A stretch of DNA of 64,000 bases from Candidatus Falkowbacteria bacterium (GTDB lineage: Bacteria; Patescibacteriota; Patescibacteriia; UBA11705; JACRDX01). The DNA is taken from the NCBI GenBank assembly GCA_043798985.1, contig JAZDOE010000003.1, positions 7,917-71,916 on the forward strand. The letters run 5' to 3'. Positions within the stretch are counted from its first letter, which is position 1. Each line of letters begins with the position of its first letter. Position numbers and translations under genes: made by a program. Shown piece by piece: positions 13,163-54,078 of this stretch. The notes beneath the pieces were generated by a model that worked only from the letters and a program-made list of their open reading frames with translations, was not told the origin of the DNA and did no database searches.

Positions 13163-15265
13163 ATGGATTTAAACACGTTGATTAAACAATTAAACAGAGT
13201 TGGCAAAACAACGTCTGGTCGTTTGGCGAAATTGGGATTGCACACGGTTGAAGACCTGATTTTTTATTTTCCGTTTCGCTACGAAGATTTTAGAACAATC
13301 GTTAAGATAAATGATTTGCAACCTGAAGCCGTTGTGACTGTCCGGGGCAGAATTGAACTTATCGCGAATCGTCGAAGTTTTCGGACGCGAAAAAATGTGA
13401 CAGAAGCGATTGTTGCTGATGATTCCGGGCAATTAAGAGTTGTATGGTTTAATCAACCATTTTTAACAAAAACGTTAAAACAAGGCGATGAAATTTTTTT
13501 GGCTGGAAAAGTTTCGGGTGACGATTTTGCGGTGCAGATGATTTCGCCGATGTACGAACCCGCCTTCGCCCCGCTATCAGCGGGGCTTCGGCAGGGCGAG
13601 CTAATACATACTGCGAGAATTGTGCCGATTTATCCGCTGACCGCAGGCGTGACCGAAAAACAACTTAGATTTTTGGTCAAACAAGCTTTGCCAACGGTCA
13701 GGCAGATGAAAGATTATTTACCAAAAGAATTAATAGCGGCCGACAACTTTTTAAAATTAAGCGAAGCTTTGGAACAAGTTCATTTTCCGACAGATGAAAT
13801 ATTGTTGTCGGCCGCGAAAAAGCGGTTGGGTTTTGATGAATTGTTTTTAATCCAGTTAAGAATACAGCGGGCGCGGCAAGAACTTGATGCCTCATCCGCG
13901 CCCGCCGTAAAATTTTTGCAAAAGCCGACAAAAGAGTTTGTTGAAAATTTGCCGTTCAAATTGACTTACGCGCAAAGACAAGTGTCATGGGAAATTTTGC
14001 AGGATTTGGAAAAATCGCGGCCAATGAATCGTTTATTGCAAGGCGATGTTGGTTCTGGCAAAACAGTGACAGCCGCGATTGCCATACTGAACGTCGTGCT
14101 GAATGGATACAAAGTTGTTGTAATGGCGCCAACAGAAATTTTAGCGCAGCAGCATTTTAAAACTTTTCAAAAATTGTTTGCTAAAAATAATTTTAGAATT
14201 GCGATTTTGACGCGCGGCAGCAAGTTGGTTGGCGATGAAAAAATGACGCCGAAAAAAATGTTGAATATTGTTAATGCCGGAGAATTTGATTTACTGGTTG
14301 GCACGCACGCTTTAATTCAGGAAAAAATTAAAATTCCAAATTTGGGGTTTGTTGTTGTTGACGAACAACACAGATTCGGCGTAAAACAAAGAATGGCGTT
14401 GGCAAAAGCTAAACAACAAAATGTTGTTGTGCCGCATTTTTTGTCAATGACCGCCACCCCGATTCCGCGTACTTTGATGCTGACTGTTTATGGAGATTTG
14501 GATTTGAGCGTGATAAAGCAAATGCCAGCTGGTCGCAAACCGATAATTACAAAAGTGGTGGATGAAAATAATCGCGCGAAAGCTTACGAATTTGTGCGTA
14601 AAGAAATACAAGCAGGCAAGCCATGCCTACCGGCAGGCAGGCAGGCGTTTGTAATTTGTCCATTGATTGATCCGTCAGACACTTTGGGTTACAAATCAGC
14701 GAAACAAGAAAGCGACTTTTTGGCAAAGGATATTTTTCAAGATTTGAAAATTGGTTTGATGCATGGCAAGTTAAAATCCGCTGAAAAAGAAACGGTCATG
14801 GCAAAATTCAGCAACAAAGAATTTGATATTTTAGTTTCAACTTCAGTTGTTGAGGTTGGCGTGGATATTCCAAACGCCACGATAATGATGATTGAGGGCG
14901 CTGACAGATTTGGTTTGGCGCAGCTTCATCAGTTTCGTGGTAGAGTTGGTCGCGCAGAGCACCAGTCATATTGTTTTTTGTTTTCGTCTAATAATAATCC
15001 AGCGGCAATAAAGCGCTTGCAATATTTAGAAACTTGCATTGACGGGTTTAGCTTAGCTGAAAAAGATTTAGAATCACGCGGGGCAGGCGAGATTTATGGT
15101 AGCAGGCAGTCTGGTTTGCCAGAGTTTAAAATAGCTAAAATTACAGATTTTGAGCTTGTTGCTTTGGCGCAAAAACAAGCAAAATGGATTTTGGAAAACG
15201 CAAAAATAACGCCGGAATTATCAGCGCAAATGGAACGAATGGAATTTGTCGGACATTGTGAATAA
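13163..15265 (+). CDS. recG: ATP-dependent DNA helicase RecG
   Basis: Wedge domain plus SF2 helicase motifs 'GDVGSGKT', 'VVDEQHRFG', 'QLHQFRGRVGR'; 700 aa. Confidence 0.9.
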   Translation: MDLNTLIKQLNRVGKTTSGRLAKLGLHTVEDLIFYFPFRYEDFRTIVKINDLQPEAVVTVRGRIELIANRRSFRTRKNVTEAIVADDSGQLRVVWFNQPFLTKTLKQGDEIFLAGKVSGDDFAVQMISPMYEPAFAPLSAGLRQGELIHTARIVPIYPLTAGVTEKQLRFLVKQALPTVRQMKDYLPKELIAADNFLKLSEALEQVHFPTDEILLSAAKKRLGFDELFLIQLRIQRARQELDASSAPAVKFLQKPTKEFVENLPFKLTYAQRQVSWEILQDLEKSRPMNRLLQGDVGSGKTVTAAIAILNVVLNGYKVVVMAPTEILAQQHFKTFQKLFAKNNFRIAILTRGSKLVGDEKMTPKKMLNIVNAGEFDLLVGTHALIQEKIKIPNLGFVVVDEQHRFGVKQRMALAKAKQQNVVVPHFLSMTATPIPRTLMLTVYGDLDLSVIKQMPAGRKPIITKVVDENNRAKAYEFVRKEIQAGKPCLPAGRQAFVICPLIDPSDTLGYKSAKQESDFLAKDIFQDLKIGLMHGKLKSAEKETVMAKFSNKEFDILVSTSVVEVGVDIPNATIMMIEGADRFGLAQLHQFRGRVGRAEHQSYCFLFSSNNNPAAIKRLQYLETCIDGFSLAEKDLESRGAGEIYGSRQSGLPEFKIAKITDFELVALAQKQAKWILENAKITPELSAQMERMEFVGHCE

Positions 15266-15342
15266 TTTAGTCTTGACATTTCAAGATGGTTTTGCTACAC
15301 TAAAGCCATCTTTTTTGTTCGTCACAACCTGAAGGAGGGAAC

Positions 15343-15705
15343 ATGACGAAGAGAGTGAGGGGAAAGTTCGTAAAGGAAGCGGAGTATTGTTGCGGCTGCC
15401 ATATGCGCGTGGCGCCGCAGGATCCGCGTCGCGTTCAGCTGGACGACGGTGCGCCGGCGCACAGGACTTGTCTCGGCAAGACGCTCTCACGGGCAGTAGA
15501 GATGAAAATGCCGGTGCAGGACCTCAAGCCGTTGTGTGAGGCAGTGCGCCGTAGCGTGGGCGAGTCTGCGTACGGCAAGTTGTTTGAGCGCGAAGTCCAG
15601 CCGGTGCTGATGGATCAGCGGCGTGAAGAGCAGTTCGCGCAGATAGCGCAGTTGCGTCGCGAGCGGCGACCGCAGGCCGCCAGAAAAGCTGGCGCCATGG
15701 CGTGA
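15343..15705 (+). CDS. GC-rich hypothetical protein with Cys/His cluster (CCGCH...H..C); foreign-looking cassette
   Basis: TTGACA-17-TACACT promoter and GAAGGAGGG RBS upstream, hairpin terminator downstream; GC far above backbone. Confidence 0.45.
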   Translation: MTKRVRGKFVKEAEYCCGCHMRVAPQDPRRVQLDDGAPAHRTCLGKTLSRAVEMKMPVQDLKPLCEAVRRSVGESAYGKLFEREVQPVLMDQRREEQFAQIAQLRRERRPQAARKAGAMA

Positions 15706-15714
15706 AGAACGTCA

Positions 15715-15748
15715 CCCCCTTACTATAACGTAGTAGGGGGATTTTTTT
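15715..15748 (+). terminator. rho-independent terminator (cccccttactataacgtagtaggggg plus T-run); homolog of the terminator at 32227
   Basis: GC stem plus T-run; compensatory differences versus the 32227 copy. Confidence 0.7.
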
Positions 15749-17084: not shown

Positions 17085-17085
17085 A

Positions 17086-18501
17086 TTATTTTATCGCGAC
17101 TGGACAATTTCCTCCTGGTTCCGCTTGGAACAAATTTGTCACTCCATATTTGTCCATTATTCTTTCTTTTCCTGCTTTGCGAACCGAGGCTGCTTTGCCT
17201 TTGCCATATTGGAGTCCTCCTATCGCTGCTTCCTGCAACGTCTTATAATAGCCTCCTGTCCAGTCGCTTGGTTGATAACCACCGTCTTTTGGAGTGCAAA
17301 CAGTTTTTCCTATATCAAACGCCTTTTCTTTGCAACGTTTTATAATTAGGGTCTGCCATGACAGCGCGAGTCCATTTTCAATATTTTCTCCGCCCTGGCA
17401 TCCCCCTTTATTTAAGGTGCTTGTTAGGTTGTCTATCCCGCTGTTATGATAAAGGTAAAGCAACGTTGCCATATCAGGATCAGATAAATTTTTTGTGCCG
17501 GCGCAATTGCTTTCTATTATTTTTTTTGCACTTAATATTGCCTTAGTTATGCCAGCAGTTTGTAAATTAACATCAAAAAGTCTAGGATCGTTTTCAACAA
17601 GCTCGCCGGTAGCCAAGCCCAATTCTGAAAAATAATAATTCATTTTTTTCACGTCTTTCTCCCCCCCCAAAGTTCCTTCTATGGATGATTTTTTAAATTG
17701 GAACAATCCTCCAAAACAAGAGCAGTTGACTACGTATGGTTGAAAGCTGGATTCGTAGTCAGCGATCCCCATTAATATTTTCCAGTTGAAATTTCCGCAA
17801 GCGGCGAAATTTCTGAATGTCTGTTCAAAGTTTCCCGGAGGAATGGAAGTGCTGTTTGTTTGTATTCCGCAATGTTTTAAAACAGATTCGTGACCAGCTC
17901 CGCAAGTGCCGTCAGAATTTGCCGCTTCATCTTTGCCGAATAAAATATCGTCCATTGTCACTCTTTTTACTAATTCCATGTTGAAGGATTTTAGTTTTGT
18001 AAGTTCTGGATTTATAAAGTATAAAATAAGATATGCCGATAGAAGAATGATTAAGCCGCTGATGCTGCCAAGAATAGTTTTTTTGCTTTTTTCAACCCAA
18101 GATTTATTAAGACCGCTTAGCATGTAGAAAAACCCGCCGATAATCAGCAAAAGAGTGGCAAAAACCGCGCCGATAATTAGGGCATATTTATAAATCGCAA
18201 GCAGATATTCAGCGATCCACGGAATATCAATTGATTGTGGCTCGCCTTGGTCGTTTTTAGTTATTGTTGCGTTTGAAAACTGGGGGAGCGTTGGACTTGG
18301 TATATTTAACTTTGGAGATTGTGGAGCGCCTGCGTTTTCGCCTTCTGATGCGATTATTTTTGCAAAATTCGGAAGCGTTGGGATCGGTATATTTAACTTT
18401 GGTCCTTCTATGATTTCTGTGCTAGTTGTTTGGGCAAATGCAAATAACGGAAAGAGCATTAGTATTAAGTTAAGTAGTAAAAATAATTTACGCATAACCA
18501 T
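17086..18501 (-). CDS. lytic transglycosylase (SLT domain) fused to a VirB2-like N-terminal membrane module
   Basis: SLT catalytic region 'ILMGIADYESSFQPYVV...GLFQF'. The N-terminal ~170 aa (signal peptide, IPIPTLP repeats, two TM helices) are paralogous to the N-terminus of the 18963-20237 product. Confidence 0.6.
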   Translation of the reverse strand: MVMRKLFLLLNLILMLFPLFAFAQTTSTEIIEGPKLNIPIPTLPNFAKIIASEGENAGAPQSPKLNIPSPTLPQFSNATITKNDQGEPQSIDIPWIAEYLLAIYKYALIIGAVFATLLLIIGGFFYMLSGLNKSWVEKSKKTILGSISGLIILLSAYLILYFINPELTKLKSFNMELVKRVTMDDILFGKDEAANSDGTCGAGHESVLKHCGIQTNSTSIPPGNFEQTFRNFAACGNFNWKILMGIADYESSFQPYVVNCSCFGGLFQFKKSSIEGTLGGEKDVKKMNYYFSELGLATGELVENDPRLFDVNLQTAGITKAILSAKKIIESNCAGTKNLSDPDMATLLYLYHNSGIDNLTSTLNKGGCQGGENIENGLALSWQTLIIKRCKEKAFDIGKTVCTPKDGGYQPSDWTGGYYKTLQEAAIGGLQYGKGKAASVRKAGKERIMDKYGVTNLFQAEPGGNCPVAIK

Positions 18502-18513
18502 TAGCCGTTGTTG

Positions 18514-18927
18514 TTATTTACAATCTCCTTTGGTAAATGTATAGCCGCCAGCTTCAGCGGACGCCACTCCTTGGCAGTCCATTTCTGTTAGAGCTGGAAG
18601 GGAAAGACCATTGTCTAGCAAACAACATCCGGTAGCTTCTTTTTCCGCTTGCGAGATTATGTCATCGCCAACTTTTCCACCGAATGCTTTATAAAATTCT
18701 GCTTCTGCGTTCGGCGCGGTTGATGGCACAGAGCTATAATAACTTTGAACGAGCGATAAGAAATGATTCCAGTCAAAAGCCGCGCCAGGATCACCGTGCG
18801 TATTATCTTGAACGTCAGCATGACCAACAATTCCAGGGCCTAAATCCCAGCAAACGCCCTCCTGACTCCAACTTGGACAATTTTGTGCCGGCGGAGACGT
18901 TGAGACTGCGCGCCGCATTTGGAGCAC
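18514..18927 (-). CDS. hypothetical secreted Cys-rich protein (possible amidase or LAS-like fragment)
   Basis: 'HADVQDNTHGDPGAAFDW' metal-site-like motif. C-terminal GCC...D...C.G...C motif shared with the 18963-20237 product; apparent GTG start. Confidence 0.3.
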   Translation of the reverse strand: MLQMRRAVSTSPPAQNCPSWSQEGVCWDLGPGIVGHADVQDNTHGDPGAAFDWNHFLSLVQSYYSSVPSTAPNAEAEFYKAFGGKVGDDIISQAEKEATGCCLLDNGLSLPALTEMDCQGVASAEAGGYTFTKGDCK

Positions 18928-18962: not shown

Positions 18963-20237
18963 TTAGCTACACGCACCTTGTTTCCATATTGGTAGATTGA
19001 TGGCGTCTAATCCTTCACAAAATTGAACGGTTGAATCTGGAATCACTGTCCCATCTACTGTCGTGCAACACCCTATAGCGTTTGGATCTGCTGTCGGCAC
19101 AACGCCTTCTTCGCACGCGCCGTTCCATTCAAAGTGCATTGGATCATAATAATTTTTCCATCCACCACCCCATATAAAATTATGTTTTTGGAAAATGTTA
19201 ATCACCCATGCTGGGATATTCGTTGGGATTGGCTGCCCATTGTTGTAGTCTTTGCATTCTGTGTCATAAGTTCCATCCTTTAGTTTTGAGCAAGCTGGGT
19301 TTTGACACGTTGCAATGTCAACAGCAACTGCAAACCTGTGGGGAGATGGTTTCCATTGGCCCGTTTTATTTGATATGCAAGTTTCTTTTGGACATTCTGT
19401 TTCGGGGCAGCTCGCAACGCAGCGCCACACATATATCCATGGACGTTGTTTGTCTGATTTGTTAGAGAGTTTTTTGCCATTTGCCGCGGGCGCATTACAC
19501 GGCGCATACACAATTTTTTCAAATTCCGGCCAGCGCGAGTCAGTCATTATTTCATTGCTGATTGCTTGAAAAATTGGTTTTACTACCTTTGCACATCCGC
19601 CAGTGTTATTATTTCCAAGGAAAGGGCACGAACTGTCTATGATAGCGGACATTTCAGATTTTGATTGTTTAACAACTTGATTCCAGCACGGGCCATGTTT
19701 TGTTTGGGAAATCCATTGTTGAAAGGGTTGGTCGTCAAAGATAACAGGTTCGCTTTTGACCATTGCGAGACGCAAGCTTTTTAATTTTGTGAGCTCTGGG
19801 TTGATTATGTACAAAAGCAAATAAGCGGCAAGAAGAATGATTAAGCCGCTAAGGCTGCCAAGAATAGTTTTTTTGCTTTTTTCAACCCAAGATTTATTAA
19901 CCCCGCTTGTCATGTAAAAAAAACCGCCGATGATTACCAAAAGCGTAGCGAACACCGCGCCAATAATCAGGGCGTATTTGTAAATCGCGATTAGATATTC
20001 AGCAATCCACGGAATATCAATTGATTGCGGCTCGCCGGCCGCGTTTGTTGTGATTGTTGCTTTTGAAAAACTGGGAAGTGTTGGAATCGGTATGTTTAAT
20101 GCCGGTCCTTCAACTGGATCAACGTTGGCTGGAGCTGTCCCTGTTGTTGGCCCCGCCAACGGTGGGGCGGTTTGGGCAAACGCGAAAATAGGATATAATA
20201 ATAAAATTAAGCTGGTAAGCAATAATAATTTGCGCAT
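18963..20237 (-). CDS. LAS-family (peptidase M15-like) zinc cell-wall peptidase fused to a VirB2-like N-terminal membrane module
   Basis: 'HRFAVAVDIA' and 'DPMHFEW' resemble the H-x-x-x-x-x-x-D / H-x-H-hydrophobic zinc motifs of M15/LAS peptidases; N-terminal 170 aa paralogous to the 17086-18501 product. Confidence 0.5.
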   Translation of the reverse strand: MRKLLLLTSLILLLYPIFAFAQTAPPLAGPTTGTAPANVDPVEGPALNIPIPTLPSFSKATITTNAAGEPQSIDIPWIAEYLIAIYKYALIIGAVFATLLVIIGGFFYMTSGVNKSWVEKSKKTILGSLSGLIILLAAYLLLYIINPELTKLKSLRLAMVKSEPVIFDDQPFQQWISQTKHGPCWNQVVKQSKSEMSAIIDSSCPFLGNNNTGGCAKVVKPIFQAISNEIMTDSRWPEFEKIVYAPCNAPAANGKKLSNKSDKQRPWIYVWRCVASCPETECPKETCISNKTGQWKPSPHRFAVAVDIATCQNPACSKLKDGTYDTECKDYNNGQPIPTNIPAWVINIFQKHNFIWGGGWKNYYDPMHFEWNGACEEGVVPTADPNAIGCCTTVDGTVIPDSTVQFCEGLDAINLPIWKQGACS

Positions 20238-23299: not shown

Positions 23300-23427
23300 A
23301 AATTCGAAGCGCGAAGTTCGAAATACGAAACAAGTTCGAAACACGAATTTCCCAATGTTTGAAACGTTCTGATTTCGAATTTGGAATTTGTTTAGGATTT
23401 AGGATTTCGAATTTCGTATTTATAAGT
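23300..23427. repeat. AT-rich conserved leader module, copy B
   Basis: acacgaatttcccaatgtttgaaacgttctgatttcgaatttggaatttgtttaggatttaggatttcgaatttcgtatttataag, ending 3 nt before the ATG. Confidence 0.7.
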
Positions 23428-23429
23428 TT

Positions 23430-24761
23430 ATGGACAACATTTTTAAAGCTTACGACGTGAGAGGCGTTTACCCGAATGAATTGAATGAGGAAATAATGGA
23501 AAAGATCGGAGGGGCTTTTGTTAAATTTTTAGGCGCAAGTTCAATATTGGTTGGTTGCGATATGCGAATTTCTACGCCGCAGCTGGTTGAAGCGTTTAAG
23601 CGAGGAGCGTTGAAAGGTGGCGCGCAAGTGACTGACCTTGGGCAAATTAGTACTGACTGTTTATATTTTGCTTCTGGGAAATATAATTTGGCTGGCGCTA
23701 TGATTACTGCGTCGCACAATCCAAAAGAATGGAATGGCGTGAAATTTTGCCGAGCTGGCGCAGAACCGATTGGGGCTGATTCTGGTTTGCGAGAAATTGA
23801 GTCATTAGTAATTAAACAAAGTATTTTGTCGGAATTTCGCGACCATTGCCAAAGTTTTATTGATAAAACAAAGCTGCGATCATTGAAAGTTGTGATAGAC
23901 GCGGGAAATGGAATGGCAGGCAAAATGGTTCCAGCTGTTTTTCAGGGGTTGCCGATTCAAGTTGTCCCGTTATTTTTTGAGCTTGATGGAAATTTTCCAA
24001 ATCACCAGCCAAGTCCGATTGAAAAAAAGAACAACTTGGCGTTGATTGAGCGGGTGAAAGTTGAGCGCGCGGATTTGGGTTTGGCGTTTGATGGTGATGC
24101 TGATCGTGTATTTTTTGTTGATGAGCACGGAGAAATGGTTGATAGTTCGTTTATCACCGCGATGATTGCGAAAAAAATGCTGGAAAAATTTCCACGCGAA
24201 AAAATTATTTATTCTGTGACAGTCAGCAACGCTGTGCCAGAGTTGGTCGCGAAAATGGGAGGCAGCGCGATTTTAACGAAAGTGGGGCATTCGTTTATCA
24301 AACAAGTGATGAAAGAGACCAATGCGATTTTTGGTGGGGAACATTCTGGGCATTATTATTTTCGCGATAATTTTCGCGCGGATAGTGGAATAATCGCGGC
24401 ATTGATCGTGTTGGAAATGTTGAGCGAAGCCTCGGCGCAAGACGGGCGAAACGGCAAACCGTTTTCAGAATTGGTTGGCGAATTCCAAACATATCATAAA
24501 ATTGAAGAGACGAATTTTCAGGTTGCCGATGTCAAAGTTGTTTTGGAAAATTTTAAAAAACAATTTGGAGCGAATTTGGCGCAAGATTTTGATGGAATGA
24601 GTTTTGAATTTAAAGATGCTTTTGGAAAAATAGAATGGTGGTTTAATGTCCGCGCGTCAAATACAGAGCCGGTTTTGCGGTTGAATTTGGAGGCAAAGAC
24701 AAGGGAGTTGATGGCAGAGAAGTTTGGTGAGATTGCTTCAATAATAAAATACCCCCGCTAA
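23430..24761 (+). CDS. phosphomannomutase/phosphoglucomutase (alpha-D-phosphohexomutase)
   Basis: Active-site 'TASHNPKEWNG', metal loop 'DGDADR', 443 aa. Confidence 0.85.
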   Translation: MDNIFKAYDVRGVYPNELNEEIMEKIGGAFVKFLGASSILVGCDMRISTPQLVEAFKRGALKGGAQVTDLGQISTDCLYFASGKYNLAGAMITASHNPKEWNGVKFCRAGAEPIGADSGLREIESLVIKQSILSEFRDHCQSFIDKTKLRSLKVVIDAGNGMAGKMVPAVFQGLPIQVVPLFFELDGNFPNHQPSPIEKKNNLALIERVKVERADLGLAFDGDADRVFFVDEHGEMVDSSFITAMIAKKMLEKFPREKIIYSVTVSNAVPELVAKMGGSAILTKVGHSFIKQVMKETNAIFGGEHSGHYYFRDNFRADSGIIAALIVLEMLSEASAQDGRNGKPFSELVGEFQTYHKIEETNFQVADVKVVLENFKKQFGANLAQDFDGMSFEFKDAFGKIEWWFNVRASNTEPVLRLNLEAKTRELMAEKFGEIASIIKYPR

Positions 24762-24775
24762 GTTTTAGCGGGGGA
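24753..24775. terminator. bidirectional hairpin cccccgctaagttttagcggggg (family also at 51300 and 39776)
   Basis: Perfect GC stem between convergent genes. Confidence 0.6.
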
Positions 24776-26058: not shown

Positions 26059-27186
26059 ATGTTGACAGTGATTATTTTTATTTTAGTTTTAGGCGCGCTG
26101 GTTTTTGTTCACGAGTTGGGTCATTTTATTTCTGCGAAAAAATTGGGCATACGGTCAGATGAATTTGGTTTTGGTTTTCCGCCGAGAATTTGCGGGCTTA
26201 AAAAAGTGGATGGCAAGCGAAAGTTTTTTTGGGGAAACGTGAATGTTCAATCAGAAGACACGATTTATTCTTTAAACTGGATTCCACTGGGCGGGTTTGT
26301 AAAAATAAAAGGCGAGGATGGTGAAAATAAAGAAGAAAAAGACAGTTTTGCTTGCCGCAAACCATGGCAGAGATTTGTGGTTTTGAGCGCTGGCGTTGCA
26401 ATGAATTTTTTGTTTGCGGCCGTAATATTCATGTTTATTTTTTCCATTGGCGCGCCGCAAGGAATTGATGATGGCAATTCTCGTTTTATAAAATCAATCA
26501 AAGAACCGGCTGTTCAGGTAATACAAATAGTTCCAAATTCGCCAGCTGAAAAAGCGGGAATGAAATTGGGAGATGTGATTTCTATGATTGGCGGCGCGCC
26601 AGTTAAAAATGTTGATGAGGTGCGCGCCGCGTTAAAAGATAAAGATGGAAAAGAAGTGGTTGTTCAAATTGCGAGAATCGGTGAGACTCAAACATTGAAA
26701 ATTACGCCAACAAAAATGGATAGCGCGGACGGCGCGGCACTTGGCGTTGGTTTAACCGCGACAGGAATTGTCACTTACAAATTTCCATATGGTTTATGGA
26801 TTGGCCTTAAAACAACGGTATTGCTGACTGGCGCCATTGTCCAAGGGCTTTATTTGGTAATAAAAAACTTGATTATTTCCGCGCCGATTGGCGTTGACGT
26901 GGCCGGTCCTGTTGGCATTGCGGTAATTACCGGTCAAGCGGCGCGCATGGGTTTTGTCTATTTGCTCCAGTTCACAGCATTGCTGTCAATCAATCTTGGC
27001 ATTATTAATTTTTTGCCATTTCCGGCATTGGACGGCGGTCGCGTGTTGTTTTTGCTGATTGAAAAAATACGGCGCAAACCAATTGACCAAAAAATTGAAA
27101 ATGTGGTTCATACCATTGGATTCGCGTTGTTGATTGGGCTTATTGTTTTAATTACCGGTAGAGATATTTGGGGATTAGTTGGCTAA
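26059..27186 (+). CDS. rseP: RIP metalloprotease RseP (site-2 protease, M50) with PDZ domain
   Basis: 'HELGHF' in the first TM, PDZ 'IVPNSPAEKAGMKLGDVI', C-terminal 'LPFPALDGG'. Confidence 0.8.
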   Translation: MLTVIIFILVLGALVFVHELGHFISAKKLGIRSDEFGFGFPPRICGLKKVDGKRKFFWGNVNVQSEDTIYSLNWIPLGGFVKIKGEDGENKEEKDSFACRKPWQRFVVLSAGVAMNFLFAAVIFMFIFSIGAPQGIDDGNSRFIKSIKEPAVQVIQIVPNSPAEKAGMKLGDVISMIGGAPVKNVDEVRAALKDKDGKEVVVQIARIGETQTLKITPTKMDSADGAALGVGLTATGIVTYKFPYGLWIGLKTTVLLTGAIVQGLYLVIKNLIISAPIGVDVAGPVGIAVITGQAARMGFVYLLQFTALLSINLGIINFLPFPALDGGRVLFLLIEKIRRKPIDQKIENVVHTIGFALLIGLIVLITGRDIWGLVG

Positions 27187-27314
27187 AATACGAAGCACGA
27201 AACCCGAAACCCTAAACAAGCTCGAAATTCGAATTTCCCAATGTTTAAAACATTCTGATTTCAGGTTTCGCATTTGTTTCGGATTTAGTGCTTCTAATTT
27301 CGAATTTACAAGTT
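27187..27314. repeat. AT-rich conserved leader module, copy C
   Basis: tcgaatttcccaatgtttaaaacattctgatttcaggtttcgcatttgtttcggatttagtgcttctaatttcgaatttacaag. Confidence 0.7.
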
Positions 27315-27316
27315 TT

Positions 27317-28015
27317 ATGGCCAAGATATTACAATTTCGACCAGCAGAGCAATTTACCCCGCCAATGGCGGGACCGCAAACTGAAAAACGCGAAAACGCG
27401 CTGGATTTTAAAATTTGGTTGCAAAAATTTGATGAATTGAAAAATTATTGGTCAGCGCAACAGGACGATTTTTTGGCAAAACGAGAAGATCGCGATGTTT
27501 ATGATATTGAAGAAGAAGGCGTGGCAATTGGCGCGGAAACGCAGGTTTTGCGGGATTTTCAAGATTTTTTAGTGCGCAACTTTATAGAAAAGCGCGTGCC
27601 ATTGATTGAAGTTGATGGTGATGATTTTAAAAAAATTGAAGGTGGTGAAAAATTGATTCAACACTTGCGCGTAGCAGGTTATGACTTTGAAAAGCTAATG
27701 AAATATTGGCAAGGCAAATATAACAAATATCGTTTGAATTGGTCTAGTTCGGTTTTTGGGGAAGCGCAATTGTTTTTAGATGTTATTAAAGATGAAAAAG
27801 AGAAAGCAAAAATTGAAAGAGAATTGTTTGGTTTGATGGCGCGGATGAAAATGGTTTATAAAATGGAGATTGATGGTGTTGATGAGACAACCCGCGCGAT
27901 TGCAATGAAAGAGCGCGAGCTGTTGCTCGGGGCAGTTGATGATTTTTTGGAAGATTTGATGGAATATTGTCGCGCTAATTTAGTTGGCGCAAGCAGTCGT
28001 CGGAACGCCGGTTGA
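27317..28015 (+). CDS. hypothetical protein (acidic, helical)
   Basis: ORF in frame with track ORF 27179; start placed after the repeat by analogy with copies A and B. Confidence 0.35.
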   Translation: MAKILQFRPAEQFTPPMAGPQTEKRENALDFKIWLQKFDELKNYWSAQQDDFLAKREDRDVYDIEEEGVAIGAETQVLRDFQDFLVRNFIEKRVPLIEVDGDDFKKIEGGEKLIQHLRVAGYDFEKLMKYWQGKYNKYRLNWSSSVFGEAQLFLDVIKDEKEKAKIERELFGLMARMKMVYKMEIDGVDETTRAIAMKERELLLGAVDDFLEDLMEYCRANLVGASSRRNAG

Positions 28016-28667: not shown

Positions 28668-29027
28668 TTATTTTTGTTTTGTTATTGCGGAAAATATTAA
28701 TGTTAATTCATGCGCTTCCTGCCAAAGCTTTCTGCCCGCATCTTTGTTTGTGGGATTTTCTATTGCGATAATATGCAGCCAATACATCGTTTCCTTAGAT
28801 TCTTTTTTGCAGATGCCGAGTTTGTGATAGAAATCTTTTTTGGATTCTGCCCCGTCTGCTTCGGCGTAATTCGCGCCAATGCTCGTTGCCGATCGGATCA
28901 ATTGTTTTGTCATAATTTCATTGGCCGCAGTCTTTACGAGGTTTTTAACAAAATTAATGACATCGCAGCTAAACGCAGTTGTGCGCGAAGCAAGATTATA
29001 TTTTGGTTTGAGCTCAGTATTTGTCAT
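28668..29027 (-). CDS. four-helix-bundle protein (23S rRNA intervening-sequence protein family)
   Basis: 'LIRSATSIGANYAEADGAESKKDFYHKLGICKKESKETMYWLHII' family signature; flanked by inverted 'ttcaaatatcaaat' repeats (28595-28667 and 29028-29072). Confidence 0.8.
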   Translation of the reverse strand: MTNTELKPKYNLASRTTAFSCDVINFVKNLVKTAANEIMTKQLIRSATSIGANYAEADGAESKKDFYHKLGICKKESKETMYWLHIIAIENPTNKDAGRKLWQEAHELTLIFSAITKQK

Positions 29028-30143: not shown

Positions 30144-30494
30144 TTAGAATTTTTTTTGTTCGTTCGTTGTGGCAGTTCTGACTATTTTACTGAATATTAG
30201 CGTTAACTCTTGTGCCTCTTGCCATAATCGGCGCAATGCTTCTTTTTCTTGAGGATAGTACTCTGCAATCATGCGGAGCCAATGTTTCGTTTCCTGCGTT
30301 TCTTTTTTTGCGATGTATATTTTGTTTTTGAAATCTTTTTTCGAACTTGCCCCATTGGCTTCCATATAATTTGCACCGATGCTAGTTGCTGCGCGTATAA
30401 GTTGGATGATCAAAGGTTTAGACAACGGGGAAAGCGCTAGTCGTTTTGAAAACTTAATTATCGCAATGCCAAAATTGGCAGTACGCTCTTCCAA
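30144..30494 (-). CDS. four-helix-bundle protein (23S rRNA IVS protein family), second copy
   Basis: 'LIRAATSIGANYMEANGASSKKDFKNKIYIAKKETQETKHWLRMI'. Confidence 0.75.
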   Translation of the reverse strand: MEERTANFGIAIIKFSKRLALSPLSKPLIIQLIRAATSIGANYMEANGASSKKDFKNKIYIAKKETQETKHWLRMIAEYYPQEKEALRRLWQEAQELTLIFSKIVRTATTNEQKKF

Positions 30495-33104: not shown

Positions 33105-33223
33105 TTTTGAATTTCGAATTTTTAATTTTGAATCAAGGTTTAATGTCTGAATGTTTGAATGTTTCAAAATTCAGATTTTAAAATTCAATCAAAATTCGAG
33201 CTTCAAAATTCAAAATTTTAACT
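33104..33223. repeat. AT-rich palindromic upstream module (pilin-type copy D) with ctgaatgtttgaatgtttcaaaattcag
   Basis: Related copies at 34384-34463 and 35040-35153, each directly 5' of a pilin gene. Confidence 0.65.
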
Positions 33224-33727: not shown

Positions 33728-33798
33728 GTCTGTTGCGAAGGGATTCCTCACCCTTTTCAAGGGTTCGGAATGACATGCACAGCGATTCATGCGTAATT

Positions 33799-34383
33799 AT
33801 GAATAATCAAAAAGGCCAGACAATTATTGAGGCAGTTGTGGCAATCGCAGTGATCAGCTTGGCGATGCTGGGCTTTTTGTCGCAGGCAACGAGCAATTTT
33901 GTGATGGGCCGAACGAGTGAAAATCATTTTATCGCGTATAATTTGGCGAGCGAGGCGATTGAAGTAAGCCGAAACGTGCGCGATTCAAATTGGCTAAAAG
34001 GTTGTATTGATCCGGCTGTTCCTGCGAAATGTTTTTTGTGGAATAGCGGGCTGGCAAATGGTACTGATTATTCGGCTGTGTTGAATTTTAACGCAACAAC
34101 CGGCAATTGGTTATTGGATTTCTCGCCAAAAGATTTAGCAACGTGCGGAGGGGCGTGTTTGGCTGGCGACAAAACAAAATTTTCGCGCATGGTTTTTTTA
34201 CAACCTGTTTGCAAAGACAAATTTGATTGCCTTGCCGATGGCGGGGTAAACGGGATTTGCGGTGATGGAGAAAAGTGCGCTGGCGAGCAAATTGGAATTA
34301 AAGTGACAGCACAAGTTGGCTGGAGCGAGGCAAGCGGGCTGAAAACGTACGAAGCAACGGAATATTTGTATAATTGGAAGTAG
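33799..34383 (+). CDS. pilin-like / pseudopilin protein
   Basis: 'MNNQKGQTIIEAVVAIAVISLAML' prepilin-like N-terminus. Track ORF 33715 begins inside a repeat element; start trimmed to 33799 (in frame). Confidence 0.55.
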   Translation: MNNQKGQTIIEAVVAIAVISLAMLGFLSQATSNFVMGRTSENHFIAYNLASEAIEVSRNVRDSNWLKGCIDPAVPAKCFLWNSGLANGTDYSAVLNFNATTGNWLLDFSPKDLATCGGACLAGDKTKFSRMVFLQPVCKDKFDCLADGGVNGICGDGEKCAGEQIGIKVTAQVGWSEASGLKTYEATEYLYNWK

Positions 34384-34463
34384 AAAATTTTGAATTTCTA
34401 ATTTTGAATTTTGATTGAATGTTGAATGATTGAATGTTTTAAAATTCGAAATTGACAATAGGT

Positions 34464-35039: not shown

Positions 35040-35153
35040 ATTTTGAATTTTGAATTTCGAATTTTGAATCAAATCTGAATGTTTTAATTTTGAAACATTC
35101 AATCATTCAACATTCAATCAAAATTCAAAATTCTAATTTCAAAATTATTTAAT

Positions 35154-35928: not shown

Positions 35929-38350
<2,422 letters not shown>

Positions 38351-38873: not shown

Positions 38874-38901
38874 GTAGAGACGAGATATATCTCGTCTCTA
38901 C
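38874..38901. repeat. 26-bp perfect palindrome gtagagacgagatatatctcgtctctac (identical copy at 39743-39770)
   Basis: Exact duplicate flanking the 39064-39735 cassette; same GTAGAGAC...GTCTCTAC family as 13037, 47773 and 58317. Confidence 0.7.
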
Positions 38902-39742: not shown

Positions 39743-39770
39743 ATAGAGACGAGATATATCTCGTCTCTAC
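39743..39770. repeat. second identical palindrome atagagacgagatatatctcgtctctac, followed by hairpin cctcgctaaaatttagcgggg (39776-39800)
   Basis: Exact copy of 38874-38901. Confidence 0.7.
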
Positions 39771-39821
39771 AAATATCCCTCGCTAAAATTTAGCGGGGCA
39801 TTTTTTGTTAATTCATATTTG

Positions 39822-45595: not shown

Positions 45596-46744
45596 ATGAT
45601 TAATAAACAACGTTTGATTAAATTGTTTTGTGAATTAGTGAAAATAAAAAGTCCAACCGGTAGCGAAGAACAAATCAGCCGACGAGTTATTTTTTACTTG
45701 AAAAAGTTCGGCGCAAAAGTTCAGCGAGATAAATTCGGCAATATTGTTGCGAAGTTGGTTGGAACTGGCAAGCCGTTAATTCTGTGCGCACATTTGGATA
45801 CTGTCGCTGTGGGCGCTGGAAAAAATATTAGGCCGATTATTAAAAAAGGAAAAATTTTTAGCGATGGAAAAACAATTCTCGGCGCTGATAATAAAGATTC
45901 GATCGCGGCAATTTTAGAGATGTTGAATGTTATTAAAGAAAATAAAATAAAACATTGCCCCGCCGCAGCGAGGCACCGCGCGCTGGAAATTGTTTTCACG
46001 CGAGAAGAAGAGGCGATTTCTCGCGGCGCGCGGTCATTGGATTTAAGTTTGTTGAAAGGCAAAGAATGTATAATTTCCGATCATTGCAATGAATATGGAA
46101 CAATTGTGACATCTGCTCCGGGCTGCTATAAATTTGAAATCAAAATTTTTGGCAAACGATGTCATGTTAAGGAGCCGGAAAAAGGAATTAACGCTATAAA
46201 AATCGCGGCAGAAATAATCAGAAAAATTCCGCTCGGCAAAGTTGATAATTTTACAAACGCGAATATTGGTTATCAAATCGCTGGATTAGATGGCGTTGTA
46301 AATAAGGCAGGCGCGGTCATTGACCAGTTGTTTAATGAGAATCGCAACACTGTTCCTGATTTGGCGATTCTGTTGGGTGAAGTGCGCGGAGTAAGGTCGG
46401 AAAATTTGCAACGGGCTTTGTTGAAAATTCAAAAAATAGCGGAAAAAATCACTGCGCGATTTTGCGGTCGTATTGAGTTTTGCGCTGACAAATTAACAGA
46501 CGGCTATTGTTTGAAACAAAATAACAAATTGATTTTGCAAATTAAAAATACTTTTAAGAAGCAGGGCATTGAACCGCAGTTTTGCCAAGCGCTCGGCGGA
46601 TCTGACGCGAATATCTTGAATAATCGCGGAATACGATCGGTTGTTATTGCTTCAGCGCACAGAAACAATCACCAAACTTATGAATATTTGATAATCAAAG
46701 ACTTGGAGCGGCTCGCAGAATTTTATTTGTTATTTGTTCAATGA
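45596..46744 (+). CDS. M20-family metallopeptidase/deacylase (ArgE/DapE/PepT-like)
   Basis: 'ILCAHLDTV' and 'GADNKDSIAA' metal-binding motifs. Confidence 0.65.
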   Translation: MINKQRLIKLFCELVKIKSPTGSEEQISRRVIFYLKKFGAKVQRDKFGNIVAKLVGTGKPLILCAHLDTVAVGAGKNIRPIIKKGKIFSDGKTILGADNKDSIAAILEMLNVIKENKIKHCPAAARHRALEIVFTREEEAISRGARSLDLSLLKGKECIISDHCNEYGTIVTSAPGCYKFEIKIFGKRCHVKEPEKGINAIKIAAEIIRKIPLGKVDNFTNANIGYQIAGLDGVVNKAGAVIDQLFNENRNTVPDLAILLGEVRGVRSENLQRALLKIQKIAEKITARFCGRIEFCADKLTDGYCLKQNNKLILQIKNTFKKQGIEPQFCQALGGSDANILNNRGIRSVVIASAHRNNHQTYEYLIIKDLERLAEFYLLFVQ

Positions 46745-47104: not shown

Positions 47105-47776
47105 ATGGACGCGAAAAAACTGTTTGCCAGGCTTGATGCTGATACATGGTTCTTTGACTTGGACGGAACATTGTATTCAGCAATGAATAAAATCAGCCAA
47201 GTATTTAAGGCAAAATACTTGGAATTGGTGATGGCGGTTTATGGTCTTGATTTGGCAAAAGCCGAGCAAAAACTTATTGAACTTCAGTTCAAACACAAGA
47301 CGCGTTTGATGCGTCCGGCGCTTGTCAGAGACGGCGTGCCAATAGGGATTATTTCAAGCTTTACGGCCTTTAGAATTGACGCGAAAAAGCTTGGAATCGC
47401 GTTGCCACGAAAGCGGCGAGAGAATCTGTTGGCTGCCGTGGGAGAGCGCATTGTGCTGACCAATAGCCCTGAATCTTACGCTTGGCAAATGTTAAGCGCG
47501 CTTGGCGTGGGAGATCTGTTTGCGCAGGTGATTGGCGCGGAAAGCATGGACAATGGCCGTGTTTTCAAACCAGAATGCGGAGCATATAACGCGCTCATCG
47601 TTGCGCTGGGAAATGGACGACGAGTCGTGTTGGTTGATGATGAGGAACCAAATCTGGACGCGGCCGTTGAAATCAGCCACGCGATTGGCAATGTCGCGGT
47701 AAGCAATCTCGTGACAATTCTTGTTGGAAATAAGCCGAAATCATCAACGCATTTGAACATCGCACATTTGGATTAA
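47105..47776 (+). CDS. HAD-superfamily hydrolase, GC-rich
   Basis: Motif I 'FFDLDGTLY', motif IV 'VLVDDEEPN'; ends at palindrome 47773-47803. Confidence 0.55.
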   Translation: MDAKKLFARLDADTWFFDLDGTLYSAMNKISQVFKAKYLELVMAVYGLDLAKAEQKLIELQFKHKTRLMRPALVRDGVPIGIISSFTAFRIDAKKLGIALPRKRRENLLAAVGERIVLTNSPESYAWQMLSALGVGDLFAQVIGAESMDNGRVFKPECGAYNALIVALGNGRRVVLVDDEEPNLDAAVEISHAIGNVAVSNLVTILVGNKPKSSTHLNIAHLD

Positions 47777-47803
47777 TAGAGACGTATTGCAATGTGTCTC
47801 TAC
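47773..47803. repeat. imperfect palindrome atagagacgtattgcaatgtgtctctacc (GTAGAGAC family)
   Basis: Family member with two spacer mismatches. Confidence 0.5.
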
Positions 47804-47974: not shown

Positions 47975-48292
47975 ATGAATTTTGATAAAGAACAAATTGA
48001 ACATTTGGCAAAATTGGCGCGGCTTGAAATTACGACAGCCGAAAAAGAAAAGTACGCAGAGCAGATTGCTTCAATTATTGATTATTTTGGAAAGTTGAAC
48101 GCAATTGACATGAAAAATGTTGAGCCATTGGATTTTATTACAGAATTGAAAAATGTTTGGCGCGAAGACGAGGCCGCGCAATTTTTTGATAAAGAAAAAA
48201 CGCTGGCCGCTTGCCCGCGGACGCGGGACGCGGCCAGGGAAGCGCCGGAGTTGAAAGACGACCAAATTGTTGTGCCTAATATATGGATTTGA
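47975..48292 (+). CDS. gatC: Asp/Glu-tRNA amidotransferase subunit C
   Basis: 'IEHLAKLARLEITTAEKEKYAEQIASIIDYFGKLNAIDMKNVEP'; overlaps the gatA start. Confidence 0.8.
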   Translation: MNFDKEQIEHLAKLARLEITTAEKEKYAEQIASIIDYFGKLNAIDMKNVEPLDFITELKNVWREDEAAQFFDKEKTLAACPRTRDAAREAPELKDDQIVVPNIWI

Positions 48293-50137: not shown

Positions 50138-50163
50138 CTTGTAGCTGGTAGCAGGGTAGCTTA

Positions 50164-50709: not shown

Positions 50710-50713
50710 TTTT

Positions 50714-51247: not shown

Positions 51248-51299
51248 TTACTAATCACTACGAATTGTTACCAATTACGAATATACGAATAAAAAAATA

Positions 51300-51324
51300 C
51301 CCCGACTAAGTTTTAGCGGGGGGC
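51300..51324. terminator. bidirectional hairpin ccccgactaagttttagcgggggg (same family as 24753)
   Basis: Perfect GC stem at the 3' end of a GC-rich minus-strand gene. Confidence 0.6.
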
Positions 51325-51330
51325 GTTTGT

Positions 51331-51963
51331 TCACGTTTTCCTACACGTGGCGTAGACAAAGTTTTTCCGAAGTTCGTGGAATATCGGCGAACCTGCAAGT
51401 AATTCCCATGTGCCGCTACAAAAGAACATTTCTTTGCCATCGCCACCTAAGAAATCAAAGTGGCCAGCGCTCATTTTGTGCGGATAATGCGTTGCCAGCG
51501 CTGTCAATTCAACTGGCGTAAGAACGCGTCGCCCGTGTTCGGCAAGTTCGGTCTTGATGTCAGTGACCAGTTTGCCAACGTCTTCTCCTGATCTACTGAT
51601 GTCTGTGTCAAATATCAAGTACGGCTGTTGTGCTTCTTCGGTAAACTTGGACAGATGGCCATCCGCGATAGCGCCACGTCCATAGTGCGCAGTGTTAGAA
51701 TTGGGGCGATTCCTGGTTTGATGATCAGGCGCTGGGGCCCAAATCTTGGAAAGCTGGTGAGCTAATGGAACCATTGTTTGCGGAATAATGACAAGTACTC
51801 GCACTGATGTGTCATGGTCGTACATCCAACGCGCTGCATCTACGAGCAGTGCGTTGAATGTTTCGCGAAAAGCAAGCTCGCTTTTATTCGCGACCTGATG
51901 ATAGCCAAGCTTGATCAACTGCTCAATCTGGCGCTCGACGATTCCAACGAAGTGTCTGGGCAT
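51331..51963 (-). CDS. GC-rich hypothetical protein (210 aa, no recognisable domain)
   Basis: ORF; composition clearly distinct from flanks; terminator immediately 3'. Confidence 0.4.
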   Translation of the reverse strand: MPRHFVGIVERQIEQLIKLGYHQVANKSELAFRETFNALLVDAARWMYDHDTSVRVLVIIPQTMVPLAHQLSKIWAPAPDHQTRNRPNSNTAHYGRGAIADGHLSKFTEEAQQPYLIFDTDISRSGEDVGKLVTDIKTELAEHGRRVLTPVELTALATHYPHKMSAGHFDFLGGDGKEMFFCSGTWELLAGSPIFHELRKNFVYATCRKT

Positions 51964-52068
51964 TGCGGCCTCCTTTGTTCATTGTTTAAGAACAATTAAA
52001 TTTATCACGGATTTTGGAGCGCGTCAAGCTTTTTGTTTCACGCGTTGCATGTGATAGAATGATTAAAT

Positions 52069-54078
52069 ATGATTGATTATAAAGCTTTGCTGAACGATGA
52101 ACAATATGAAATCGTCACAAAAGGCGATGGTCCGTGTTTGGTTTTGGCTGGCGCTGGCAGTGGCAAAACGCGGACATTGGTTTTTCGCGTGGCGTATTTG
52201 ATTGAAAAAGGTGTTGCGCCGGAGAATATTTTGCTTGTCACATTTACAAACAAAGCTGCGAAAGAAATGATGGAGCGCGTTGAGAAATTGTTGGGTTGTC
52301 GGCCGCAAGGTTTGTGGGGCGGAACTTTTCATCATATTGCGAATTTGATTTTGCGGAAACAGTCTGAAAAGTTGGGTTATAAAAATAATTTTAATATTTT
52401 GGATGAGGATGACAGCACAAGCTTGATTAAAAAGGCAATGGATGATTTGGGGCTGAATACAAAAGGACAAAGTTTTCCAAAGCCAAATATTATTCGCGGG
52501 ATTATAAGTTTTAGCCGAAACACAAACCAAGATGTTCGCGAGGTTGCTGAATGCAATTATGGTTTGCCTGATTTTGTGGCGAAAAAAGCAGAGGAAATCG
52601 CAAGCGCTTATGAAACAAAGAAAAAAACCGCGAATGTAATGGATTTTGATGATTTGCTTGTGAATTGGTTGAAGTTGCTGGAAAAATTTCCAGAGCTTTG
52701 CGAACGTTATTCGCGGCAATTTCAACATATTTTGGTTGATGAATATCAGGATACGAATTATATTCAGGCGGAAATAATCAAACGATTGGCAGGCGTTCAT
52801 AAAAACATTTTGGTGGTTGGCGATGACTCGCAAAGCATTTATTCTTTTCGCGCCGCTGACGTTAAAAATATTTTGAATTTTCCAAAGCTTTTCATCAGGG
52901 CGCAGATTTTTAAAATTGAAACAAATTATCGCAGTACCCCGCAGATTCTTGATTTGGCCAATGAAATTATAAAACACAATCACTATAAATATCCGAAAAA
53001 TTTACAGGCAAAGCGCGGAGATGGTTTTATGCCAATGGTTGTTCCGTGCCGCGATAATCAGCAACAAGCGACTTTGATTATTGAGCGGATTAAAGAACTT
53101 AGAAATGGCGGCGCAACACTCGGCCAAATGGCCGTACTTTTCCGCGCCGCGTTTCATTCCGTTGAATTGCAAATGGAATTAAACCGCGCCCAAATTCCAT
53201 ATGTTGTGCGCGGCGGCACGCGCTATTTTGAGCAAGCGCATATTAAAGATGTTTTGGCATATTTGAAAATTTTGGCGAATTTTCAAGATGAGTCAGCATG
53301 GATTCGCGTTTTGAAAACTTTTGACGGCATTGGTCCGGGCACAATCGCCAAAATTTGGCAGGATATAAAAAACCAGCAGTCGCTGGCAGATATTTTTACG
53401 GTTGAGACACGTTTGCCAGCAAAAGCAGCCGCGAGTTGGGAAAAATTGAGAAATATTTTCGAGCGGCTGTTGAGTCTGAATCAAACCAAATCAGGTTTTA
53501 TTGCCGAGGCATTGGATTGCGTAATTGCCAAGCATTATTCAGAATTTTTGCGAAATAATTTTGAAAATTATCGCGACAGGCAAGAAGATTTGGACGAGCT
53601 CATTGATTTTGTTTATAACTATGAAAGTCTAGACAAACTTTTGGCTGATTTGATGCTTGATGAAAATTTCGCGGGAGAAAGCAGTAAAAAAGAAGCGCGT
53701 GATGCCCCGCCGTGGCGGGGCGAGGTTTTGGTTTTATCAACAATTCATCAGGCAAAGGGTTTGGAATGGTCATGCGTTTTTGTGATTGGTTTGCGCGATG
53801 GCCAATTTCCGCATTACAAATCTTTGGAAAACGCGGTTGAGCTGGAAGAAGAGCGCAGACTTTTTTACGTGGCAGCAACCCGCGCGCAAAATGAGTTGGT
53901 GTTATTATATCCGGCGCGGGCGCACCCCGCCGGTGGCGGGGCAAGCTTTTGGGCAAATCAATCAACCGGGCCATCAATGTTTATTAAAGAATTGGATCGC
54001 AAAAAATACGTGACGTTGCATAAATTCGGATTTCGGTGGGACAAAGATGAGACAGATGAGGAAGTCAGATATGAATAA
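52069..54078 (+). CDS. ATP-dependent DNA helicase UvrD/PcrA
   Basis: 'AGAGSGKTRTL' Walker A, 'ILVDEYQDTN', 'TIHQAKGLEW'. Confidence 0.9.
   Translation: MIDYKALLNDEQYEIVTKGDGPCLVLAGAGSGKTRTLVFRVAYLIEKGVAPENILLVTFTNKAAKEMMERVEKLLGCRPQGLWGGTFHHIANLILRKQSEKLGYKNNFNILDEDDSTSLIKKAMDDLGLNTKGQSFPKPNIIRGIISFSRNTNQDVREVAECNYGLPDFVAKKAEEIASAYETKKKTANVMDFDDLLVNWLKLLEKFPELCERYSRQFQHILVDEYQDTNYIQAEIIKRLAGVHKNILVVGDDSQSIYSFRAADVKNILNFPKLFIRAQIFKIETNYRSTPQILDLANEIIKHNHYKYPKNLQAKRGDGFMPMVVPCRDNQQQATLIIERIKELRNGGATLGQMAVLFRAAFHSVELQMELNRAQIPYVVRGGTRYFEQAHIKDVLAYLKILANFQDESAWIRVLKTFDGIGPGTIAKIWQDIKNQQSLADIFTVETRLPAKAAASWEKLRNIFERLLSLNQTKSGFIAEALDCVIAKHYSEFLRNNFENYRDRQEDLDELIDFVYNYESLDKLLADLMLDENFAGESSKKEARDAPPWRGEVLVLSTIHQAKGLEWSCVFVIGLRDGQFPHYKSLENAVELEEERRLFYVAATRAQNELVLLYPARAHPAGGGASFWANQSTGPSMFIKELDRKKYVTLHKFGFRWDKDETDEEVRYE

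Follow-up and report, generated by a model that had tools for sequence, protein, structure and literature searches.

In a 64,000-nt stretch of the Candidatus Falkowbacteria assembly GCA_043798985.1 (contig JAZDOE010000003.1; hereafter the window), a metagenome-assembled genome (MAG) of the Patescibacteria or candidate phyla radiation (CPR), GC-rich palindromes are inserted in frame in recG, ligA, uvrD and several other genes. They probably belong to families of ultra-short, GC-only palindromic repeats (arms CCYGCC/GGCRGG) that spread by copying into new sites. With a length of ~20 bases, in most cases exactly 21, they seem to be the smallest relatives so far observed of the selfish palindromic repeats of other bacteria, the repetitive extragenic palindromes (REPs) and Rickettsia palindromic elements (RPEs). 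The basic hairpin measures ~15 nt and the inserted block 20-21 nt. Family A has the form (G)CCCCGCC-N2-3-GGCGGGG(C); family B comprises a 21-mer, C[A/C]TGCCTACCGGCAGGCAGGC, and a perfect 20-nt form, CCTGCCTGCCGGCAGGCAGG.

The motif CCCCGCC-N2-3-GGCGGGG, which a preliminary description of this DNA had reported once in ligA and twice in uvrD, was recovered in both genes by a motif scan (Table 1), position 36639 of that description being the start of the right arm of the ligA hairpin. Three exact matches were found in the window compared to 0.00 in 100 dinucleotide shuffles, and 12 out of 12 occurrences of the 7-mer CCCCGCC/GGCGGGG, on either strand, lie within perfect or degenerate palindromes. 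With the wider consensus CCYGCC-N0-7-GGCRGG and at most one mismatch, we counted 20 overlapping matches, or ~12 distinct sites, where Markov simulations gave 1.28. Genic GC-rich hairpins with a stem of at least 7 bp numbered 11, against 1.1 ± 1.05 (maximum 4-5) after synonymous-codon shuffling. Because this shuffling leaves about one hairpin, the hairpins are not explained by protein sequence or codon usage; the feature is a DNA-level one and no by-product of either. The motif count is therefore far above the expectation from base composition, the check proposed in the preliminary description, under dinucleotide, Markov and codon-preserving nulls, and chance or codon usage was rejected as an explanation. 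The host genes had also been called otherwise AT-rich; the hairpins are indeed GC-rich, but their surroundings are only moderately AT-rich (window G+C about 41-42%). Two of ~15 copies (161 and 13051) are intergenic and the remainder sit inside open reading frames (ORFs), in varied reading phases and encoding differing peptides. Together, recG, ligA and uvrD hold 5 of ~15 genic copies yet 10% of the coding length (p ~0.014, post hoc test).

Ortholog alignment, the test that had been proposed for the six sites first listed (ligA, two in uvrD, recG, an M20 peptidase gene and gatC), identified each of them as a lineage-specific, frame-preserving insertion. LigA is seven residues longer than 39 of its 39 closest homologues, and the codon alignment with locus L003 leaves a clean gap of seven codons (21 nt). 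At uvrD site 1, the near relative (MAG GCA_016212745.1, loci L005 and L085, about 82-86% nucleotide identity) has an empty site in L005 (~86% identical) with otherwise identical flanks, the gap of seven residues recurs against P0122 and 38 other homologues, and the insert combines with native GC on its 3' side into an 18-nt perfect palindrome (53704-53721). Site 2 of uvrD is in the variable C-terminal region, where the protein is five residues longer than most homologues. The M20 peptidase insertion corresponds to a clean seven-residue gap in 29 of the 29 family representatives shown (39 aligned). At recG 13568, where the near relative's L085 shows just GCAAGGC, the inserted arm and the adjoining sequence are reverse complements. 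The gatC insert and a native GGCC form the nested palindrome GGCCGC-TTG-CCCGCG-GA-CGCGGG-AC-GCGGCC, with a DNA fold of -13.4 kcal/mol. An origin of the hairpins by chance, or as coding sequence conserved from an ancestor, has a negligible probability: one genic palindrome, at 7913, is conserved in a relative of 75% identity, but all the shuffling controls and the ortholog alignments oppose this explanation and refute it for the six sites.

Exact repeats link unrelated genes of the window. The recG 21-mer at 14622 and the identical 21-mer of a Clp-family ATPase gene at 54951 are joined by an exact 20-mer repeat, with 0 expected. The recG copy is missing from L085, L168 and the other 29 aligned RecG homologues, and its excision in silico yields KEIQAGKQAFVICP, codon-for-codon colinear with the relative's KELQNGRQSFVICP. 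The Clp copy is missing from L005 and L001, and excision leaves RQPRSSF, to be compared with RQPKNTF in L005. An exact 17-mer, GTTGGCCCCGCCAACGG, is common to the M15-peptidase gene at 20146 and the Clp gene at 55882, again with 0 expected; another short gap relative to L085 is found just upstream of the 20146 patch. The degenerate copy at 34231 has the same GAT loop as an element of a relative (L003:4291), whose ortholog of ORF 33715-34383 is without a Pfam match. The 39-nt insertion of the Clp gene is also present in L005, slightly decayed, with its outer pair broken. A CGCCATGGCG...TGAAG tail common to ligA and 15693 was considered and discarded as not significant, being equalled in 2 of 100 shuffles.

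Table 1 Palindromic elements of the window and related sequences, by position.
Position	Gene or location	Sequence	Remarks
161..175	Intergenic, upstream of the first gene	CCCTCC-ATA-GGCGGG	Degenerate copy
13037..13084	Intergenic	GTAGAGACGAGATA/TATCTCGTCTCTAT	GTAG-type REP; 20-nt palindrome CCCGCCTGCCGTCGGGCAGG (13051-13070) exactly at the dyad centre
13568..13586	recG	GCCCCGC-TATCA-GCGGGGC (GCCCCGCTATCAGCGGGGC)	12 nt inserted at 13568-13579
14622..14642	recG	CATGCCTACCGGCAGGCAGGC	Exact 21-mer; protein reads AGKPCLPAGRQA; 7 extra residues, AGKPCLP or KPCLPAG by gap placement
15449..15462		GTGCGCC/GGCGCAC	Perfect palindrome formed without length change
15679..15711	3' end of ORF 15343-15705	CGCCAG-AAAAG-CTGGCG then GGCGCCATGGCG	Window-specific 33-nt insertion, not in L085
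20146..20168	M15-peptidase gene (minus strand, 18963-20237)	GTTGGCCCCGCCAACGGTGGGGC	Patch relative to L085, +6 nt indel
27357..27372	ORF 27179-28015 (no Pfam match)	CCCCGCCAATGGCGGG	N-terminus not alignable with L168, so insertion not established
34231..34246	ORF 33715-34383 (type IV pilin cluster)	CTTGCC-GAT-GGCGGGG	Degenerate; +4 residues relative to L003
36629..36649	ligA	CCCCGCCATGGCGGGGTGAAG	21-nt insertion; hairpin and exact motif 36629-36644; encodes PRHGGVK
38874-38901		GTAG REP	
39743-39770		GTAG REP	
45956..45976	M20 peptidase gene	TGCCCCGCCGCAGCGAGGCAC	21-nt insertion; degenerate copy of GCCCCGCC-loop-GGCGGGGC
47776-47803		GTAG REP	
48209..48238	gatC		30-nt insertion; 10-codon gap relative to L001
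53699..53721	uvrD, site 1	GTGATGCCCCGCCGTGGCGGG	21-nt insertion; exact motif 53705-53720; empty site in L005
53923..53943	uvrD, site 2	CACCCCGCCGGTGGCGGGGCA	Patch; hairpin and exact motif 53925-53941; 21 nt in place of the relative's 12 nt, net +9 nt
54951..54971	Clp-family ATPase gene (54472-57258)	CATGCCTACCGGCAGGCAGGC	21-mer identical to that of recG; encodes MPTGRQA
55882..55905	Clp-family ATPase gene	GTTGGCCCCGCCAACGGCGAGATA	Same-length patch, wholly unlike the near relative; +3 residues relative to L001
56613..56652	Clp-family ATPase gene	CGCGCC-TGCT-GGCGCG and ATCCG-G-CGGAT	39-nt insertion with two hairpins; +13 residues relative to L001
58317-58344		GTAG REP	

Relatives also carry insertions where the window is empty, as a mobile element predicts. 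In L003 (JGI) and L004 (Logan), two independent assemblies, the gene upstream of ligA has a 21-nt insertion that includes GCCCCGCCGATGGCGGGGC, and L005 carries a nested 42-nt (2 x 21) insertion in a QueH-like gene; both sites are empty in the window. Comparison of the window with the near relative gave 15 indels of 9 nt or more, of which 8 involved GC palindromes. Insertion sites differ among close relatives, and shared copies decay. Both the window lineage and its relatives have acquired such insertions recently and independently. A metagenome scan with the M20 peptidase returned no match, and one with GatA found no relative nearer than 61% identity.

The lengths of the genic insertions are all multiples of three (21 nt six times; 12, 30, 33, 39 and 42 nt once each), with exactly 21 nt added in six genes, one of them in a relative. 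The insert units are almost free of stops in all six frames. Since both properties are expected of translated rather than skipped sequence, we infer that the inserts are translated as seven-residue loops rich in Pro, Gly, Ala and Arg, and persist as passengers whose effect is neutral or slightly harmful. A given unit can be read in differing frames, giving PRHGG, APPWRG or PAGGG in one case and MPTGRQA or CLPAGRQ in the other. The in-frame additions of the preliminary description were confirmed at all six sites. Placement on structures covers two modelled proteins, LigA and RecG. In the AlphaFold model of LigA, the insert (residues 106-112, pLDDT <50) forms a loop between the helix 89-102 and the strand 119-126, which bears the KxDG motif. 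The RecG inserts fall in low-confidence loops, 134-151 for site 13568 and 484-494 for site 14622.

The same units were found in distant CPR genomes and in viral contigs. The RecG of L086, a distant CPR locus of 36% G+C, has a 30-nt insertion, the sole GC-rich hairpin in 22 kb. In it, two inverted 15-nt units, CCCGCC-AGA-GGCGGG and TCCGCC-TCT-GGCGGA, together form a perfect palindrome of 28 nt. A similar dimer is present in a Magasanikbacteria UvrD (L025). Copies lie within ORFs in L046 and L089, and L087 has both families, in intergenic positions. The family B 19-mer matched 19 stretches of IMG/VR contigs of 33-70% G+C, some of them tandem arrays with a 21-nt period, and the perfect 20-nt form matched 35, with at least six copies on a single 29.5-kb contig. 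The tandem unit, CCATGCCTACCGGCAGGCAGG, was seen at L186:3918-4142, L185:4720-4761 and L172:6698-6771; the L186 array has at least 10 units and, if translated, would give CLPAGRP heptad repeats. A CRISPR-like array was rejected, as the copies are dispersed and the tandem copies of L186 have no spacers. The 20-nt palindrome also forms the long variable arm of a phage tRNA-Met and breaks a tRNA-like D-loop fragment (L212:2239-2330; L219:497-545). Rfam gave no match at the element in six viral loci, and in the window it found four tRNAs and no known RNA family for the hairpins.

No exact copy was detected in 50,697 isolate phage records or in the PLSDB plasmids. This result, and the presence of exact family B 19-20-mers in many metagenomic contigs of very unlike GC content, would fit a sequencing, assembly or library artefact of metagenomes. 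We consider such an origin very improbable: the flanks are perfectly contiguous, excision restores the orthologous frame, and the genic insertions are all in frame and, in the two modelled proteins, in loops. Moreover, the same filled site occurs in the JGI and Logan assemblies, the same viral sequences occur in different samples, and the older copies common to two MAGs have diverged.

The window also contains a family of GTAG-tagged REPs, 28-nt and mostly perfect palindromes (GTAGAGACG...CGTCTCTAC) located immediately 3' of genes, and the same family is present in the CPR loci L001, L006, L015, L087 and L168, with inner parts that vary but are mostly symmetric. We know of no description of REPs in CPR bacteria. 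The REP at 13037-13084 is interrupted by a 20-nt palindrome; uninterrupted copies are found at 38874-38901 and 39743-39770, and the orthologous REP in L085 is empty. This 20-nt insertion at 13051 is the sole intergenic event with a defined empty site. For the genic sites, manual inspection of six empty sites found neither a consistent target motif nor insertion at a palindrome centre.

Some of the palindromes have another history. At 15449, five of the seven bases of the left arm differ from the relative (GCGCAGT), and the left arm now pairs perfectly with the conserved right arm; this palindrome is a signature of template switching. All the palindromes might have been made in place during replication, by quasi-palindrome correction or fold-back copying that adds or replaces from a few bases up to a few dozen at a time, with no mobile element involved. 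The inserted arm at 13568, the outer gatC arm that pairs with native GGCC and a palindrome at 4947 that arose without any indel agree with such a process, as do the REPs, of which seven out of eight variants are perfect palindromes despite their different inner parts and whose arms have changed in pairs between the window and L085. However, template switching cannot give an identical 21-mer at 14622 and 54951 or the 17-mer that 20146 and 55882 share, since the native flanks offer no template, and it accounts neither for the constant 21-nt size nor for the recurrence of identical 19-21-mers across unrelated genomes with GC contents of 33-70%. It is refuted as the sole cause by the clean 21-mer insertions without local template, and as a general explanation it seems unlikely.

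The hairpins might instead be sites selected for a function in the host, such as uptake sequences, binding sites of CPR proteins, intragenic terminators or RNA-processing sites. The conservation of the arm sequences among distant CPR lineages and the type IV pilus and competence-like genes of the window would be consistent with this, and the bias to recG, ligA and uvrD recalls the repair-gene bias of uptake sequences and intragenic REPs (PMC3733652). Terminator-like scores were obtained for two copies, that of uvrD site 1 (plus strand) and that of the M20 gene (minus strand). Nevertheless, unlike uptake sequences, the 7-mer never occurs singly and unpaired, the sites vary between close relatives while shared copies decay, most copies lie inside ORFs without a T-tract, and the sense RNA of the degenerate copies shows A-C mismatches as often as G-U pairs. 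We therefore regard a host function as improbable, though somewhat less so than an artefact. DNA uptake sequences were rejected because the copies come by insertion and not by point substitution, and because of the missing single 7-mers; intrinsic terminators were rejected as well, since only two copies are terminator-like, with a T-tract, and both are within ORFs.

Spread by copying into new sites, the explanation that we favour, would require a sequence-specific factor, because identical 19-21-mers recur in unrelated genomes. Such a factor might act on hairpin or single-stranded DNA; an HUH/RAYT-like enzyme whose gene lies in another part of the genome would be one candidate. Selection would weed out the copies that fall out of frame or in structured parts of proteins, and point mutation would then decay the remaining ones, while local template switching would also create and perfect palindromes in this lineage.

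Several observations weigh against this explanation. The genome was examined over the 64-kb window only. No transposase or HUH gene was found by Pfam in 30 ORFs of the window, among the other ORFs, judged through their orthologs, or in the fetched loci of the relatives. Target-site duplication is inconsistent: the uvrD, recG and Clp sites have none, a 6-nt GCNGGC repeat flanks two events, and few copies on viral contigs (6 of 40, with 0.27 expected) carry flanking direct repeats of 7-8 nt. Family A copies vary in loop and tail, so there is no single master sequence. Same-length patches or the use of native flank as an arm (13568, 15449, 4947 and gatC) suggest a local mutational process, and the palindrome at 7913 (TGCGGCGCTGCGCCGCA, encoding CGAAP) is kept in the relative with no insertion.

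A further-reaching reading, which we put forward tentatively and with some doubt, is that CPR bacteria and uncultivated phages share a hitherto unrecognised class of mobile palindromes, non-autonomous and only 20-21 nt long. Hairpin tips or loops, such as the REP dyad centre or a tRNA variable loop, and coding DNA would be their targets, with no target duplication on integration. Their 21-nt length and scarcity of stops would enable them to ride essential genes, those of repair above all, and a sequence-specific enzyme would move them.

Among known systems, we compared the elements first with intragenic REPs. Di Nocera et al. (2013, PMC3733652) described GTAG- or CGTC-tagged REPs inside genes of several phyla, often dimers and with a striking share in replication and repair genes; the hosts include UvrD/Rep helicases, DNA ligase, UvrA-C and RecBCD, and a modulating effect of such inserts on repair was suggested there. 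Both are short GC-rich stem-loops, single or in inverted dimers, inserted in frame, variably present among relatives and found in repair genes, and a short GC-rich palindrome is repeated here at ~12 sites in 64 kb, with exact repeated copies. REPs differ in being tagged, 20-40 nt plus tails and mostly extragenic, whereas the window elements are untagged, 15-21 nt and mostly intragenic. The ligA, uvrD, recG, M20 and Clp copies have no GTAG/CTAC or CGTC/GACG at the foot of the stem, and in family B the sole GTAG is within the arm, read on the reverse strand; the tag is carried by the separate GTAGAGACG family. The host is also new, CPR bacteria being outside the REP survey (PMC3733652). Intragenic REPs in repair genes were already described in 2013 in other phyla (PMC3733652), and the CPR elements are untagged and smaller. 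The unexplained and potentially more novel side is the defined 21-mer in uncultivated viral contigs and the insertion at hairpin tips.

The preliminary description had likened the hairpins to RPEs (Ogata et al. 2000, as summarised in PMC10969869 and PMC6649704), which are elements of ~150 bp, confined to Rickettsia, whose conserved encoded peptide runs to tens of residues. The analogy is apt, in that selfish palindromes absent from orthologs sit in frame in unrelated housekeeping genes of a reduced genome, are translated as surface peptides and decay. It does not amount to membership: compared by description, the units here are of 15-21 nt, and the inserts of 12-42 nt encode 7-10 codons in varied frames. 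As that description had also supposed, no report of such elements in CPR bacteria was found in the literature.

REP doublets forming hairpins (REPINs) resemble the inverted hairpin dimers of L086, L025 and L005, and they too form populations of near-identical copies in one genome (PMC3116915, PMC3337134). REPINs are ~100 nt long, extragenic, vertically inherited and tied to a single-copy RAYT gene (PMC3116915, PMC3337134), whereas the present elements share exact units across distant genomes and none was seen with a RAYT in the sequences scanned. Mitochondrial GC clusters, repetitive hairpin elements (PMC2800124) and Magnusiomyces byps (as cited in PMC6649704) are likewise short GC-rich hairpins that invade AT-rich compact genomes, in coding and rRNA genes; they are organellar and 30-90 nt long. 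Byps are bypassed by the ribosome, whereas the multiple-of-three, almost stop-free inserts of the window argue for translation. Quasi-palindrome template-switch mutations (PMC6649704) share the clustered arm-complementing changes of 15449 and 13568 but copy local sequence only and do not disperse a defined 21-mer. In comparison with miniature inverted-repeat transposable elements, the whole element consists of two abutting inverted arms, and the uvrD, recG and Clp sites lack a target-site duplication; two other events and 6 of 40 viral-contig copies do have short flanking repeats.

Other features of the window were recorded. Three paralogous PF05635 genes (23S rRNA intervening sequence protein, an Avd-like four-helix bundle) lie at 28668-29027 (-), 30144-30494 (-) and 35929-36282 (+); the copy just upstream of ligA is missing in L003, so that PF05635 genes come and go. 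AT-rich repeats of the AATTTCGAATTTTGAA type stand upstream of many genes, chiefly pilin-like ones (8275, 23300-23429, 27186-27315, 33103-33168, 34386-34451 and 35039-35104), and the gatA gene of the near relative has 42 nt of a similar TTCGAAA-type repeat in frame (L005:156-230). A terminator-like hairpin, ATACCCCCGC-TAAGTTTTA-GCGGGGG, with a shared 9-nt loop has three intergenic copies (24740-24774, 39765-39799 and 51288-51322). Between 40000 and 42400, over genes for a TrpRS/TyrRS-family protein (class Ib aminoacyl-tRNA synthetase) and a pyridoxal-phosphate (PLP) decarboxylase, the G+C content reaches 52%, compared to 41% elsewhere, and yields a spurious antisense ORF of 748 residues; this segment may be acquired DNA. 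The segment 51236-52050 is not alignable to L005 and holds a minus-strand ORF (51331-51963) without a Pfam match. Two genes at 17086-18927, one for a protein resembling type IV secretion system (T4SS) pilins and SLT proteins and one small ORF, are missing in L085; they share 300-nt paralogous stretches with the adjoining M15-peptidase gene (17963-18262 and 19753-20052).

If mobile, the palindromes would be, to our knowledge, the smallest transposable units described, and their 21 nt correspond to exactly seven codons. Judging from the indels counted against the near relative, length differences between close CPR genomes seem to stem chiefly from GC palindromes. LigA, UvrD, RecG and a Clp ATPase gain loops from them in organisms whose repair equipment is minimal, and a new superphylum is thereby brought into the unexplained association of intragenic palindromic repeats with genome-maintenance genes. 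Such inserts affect how CPR marker proteins are aligned, placed in phylogenies and modelled, and the exact 21-mer provides a handle for counting copies in complete CPR genomes and for seeking a co-occurring enzyme.

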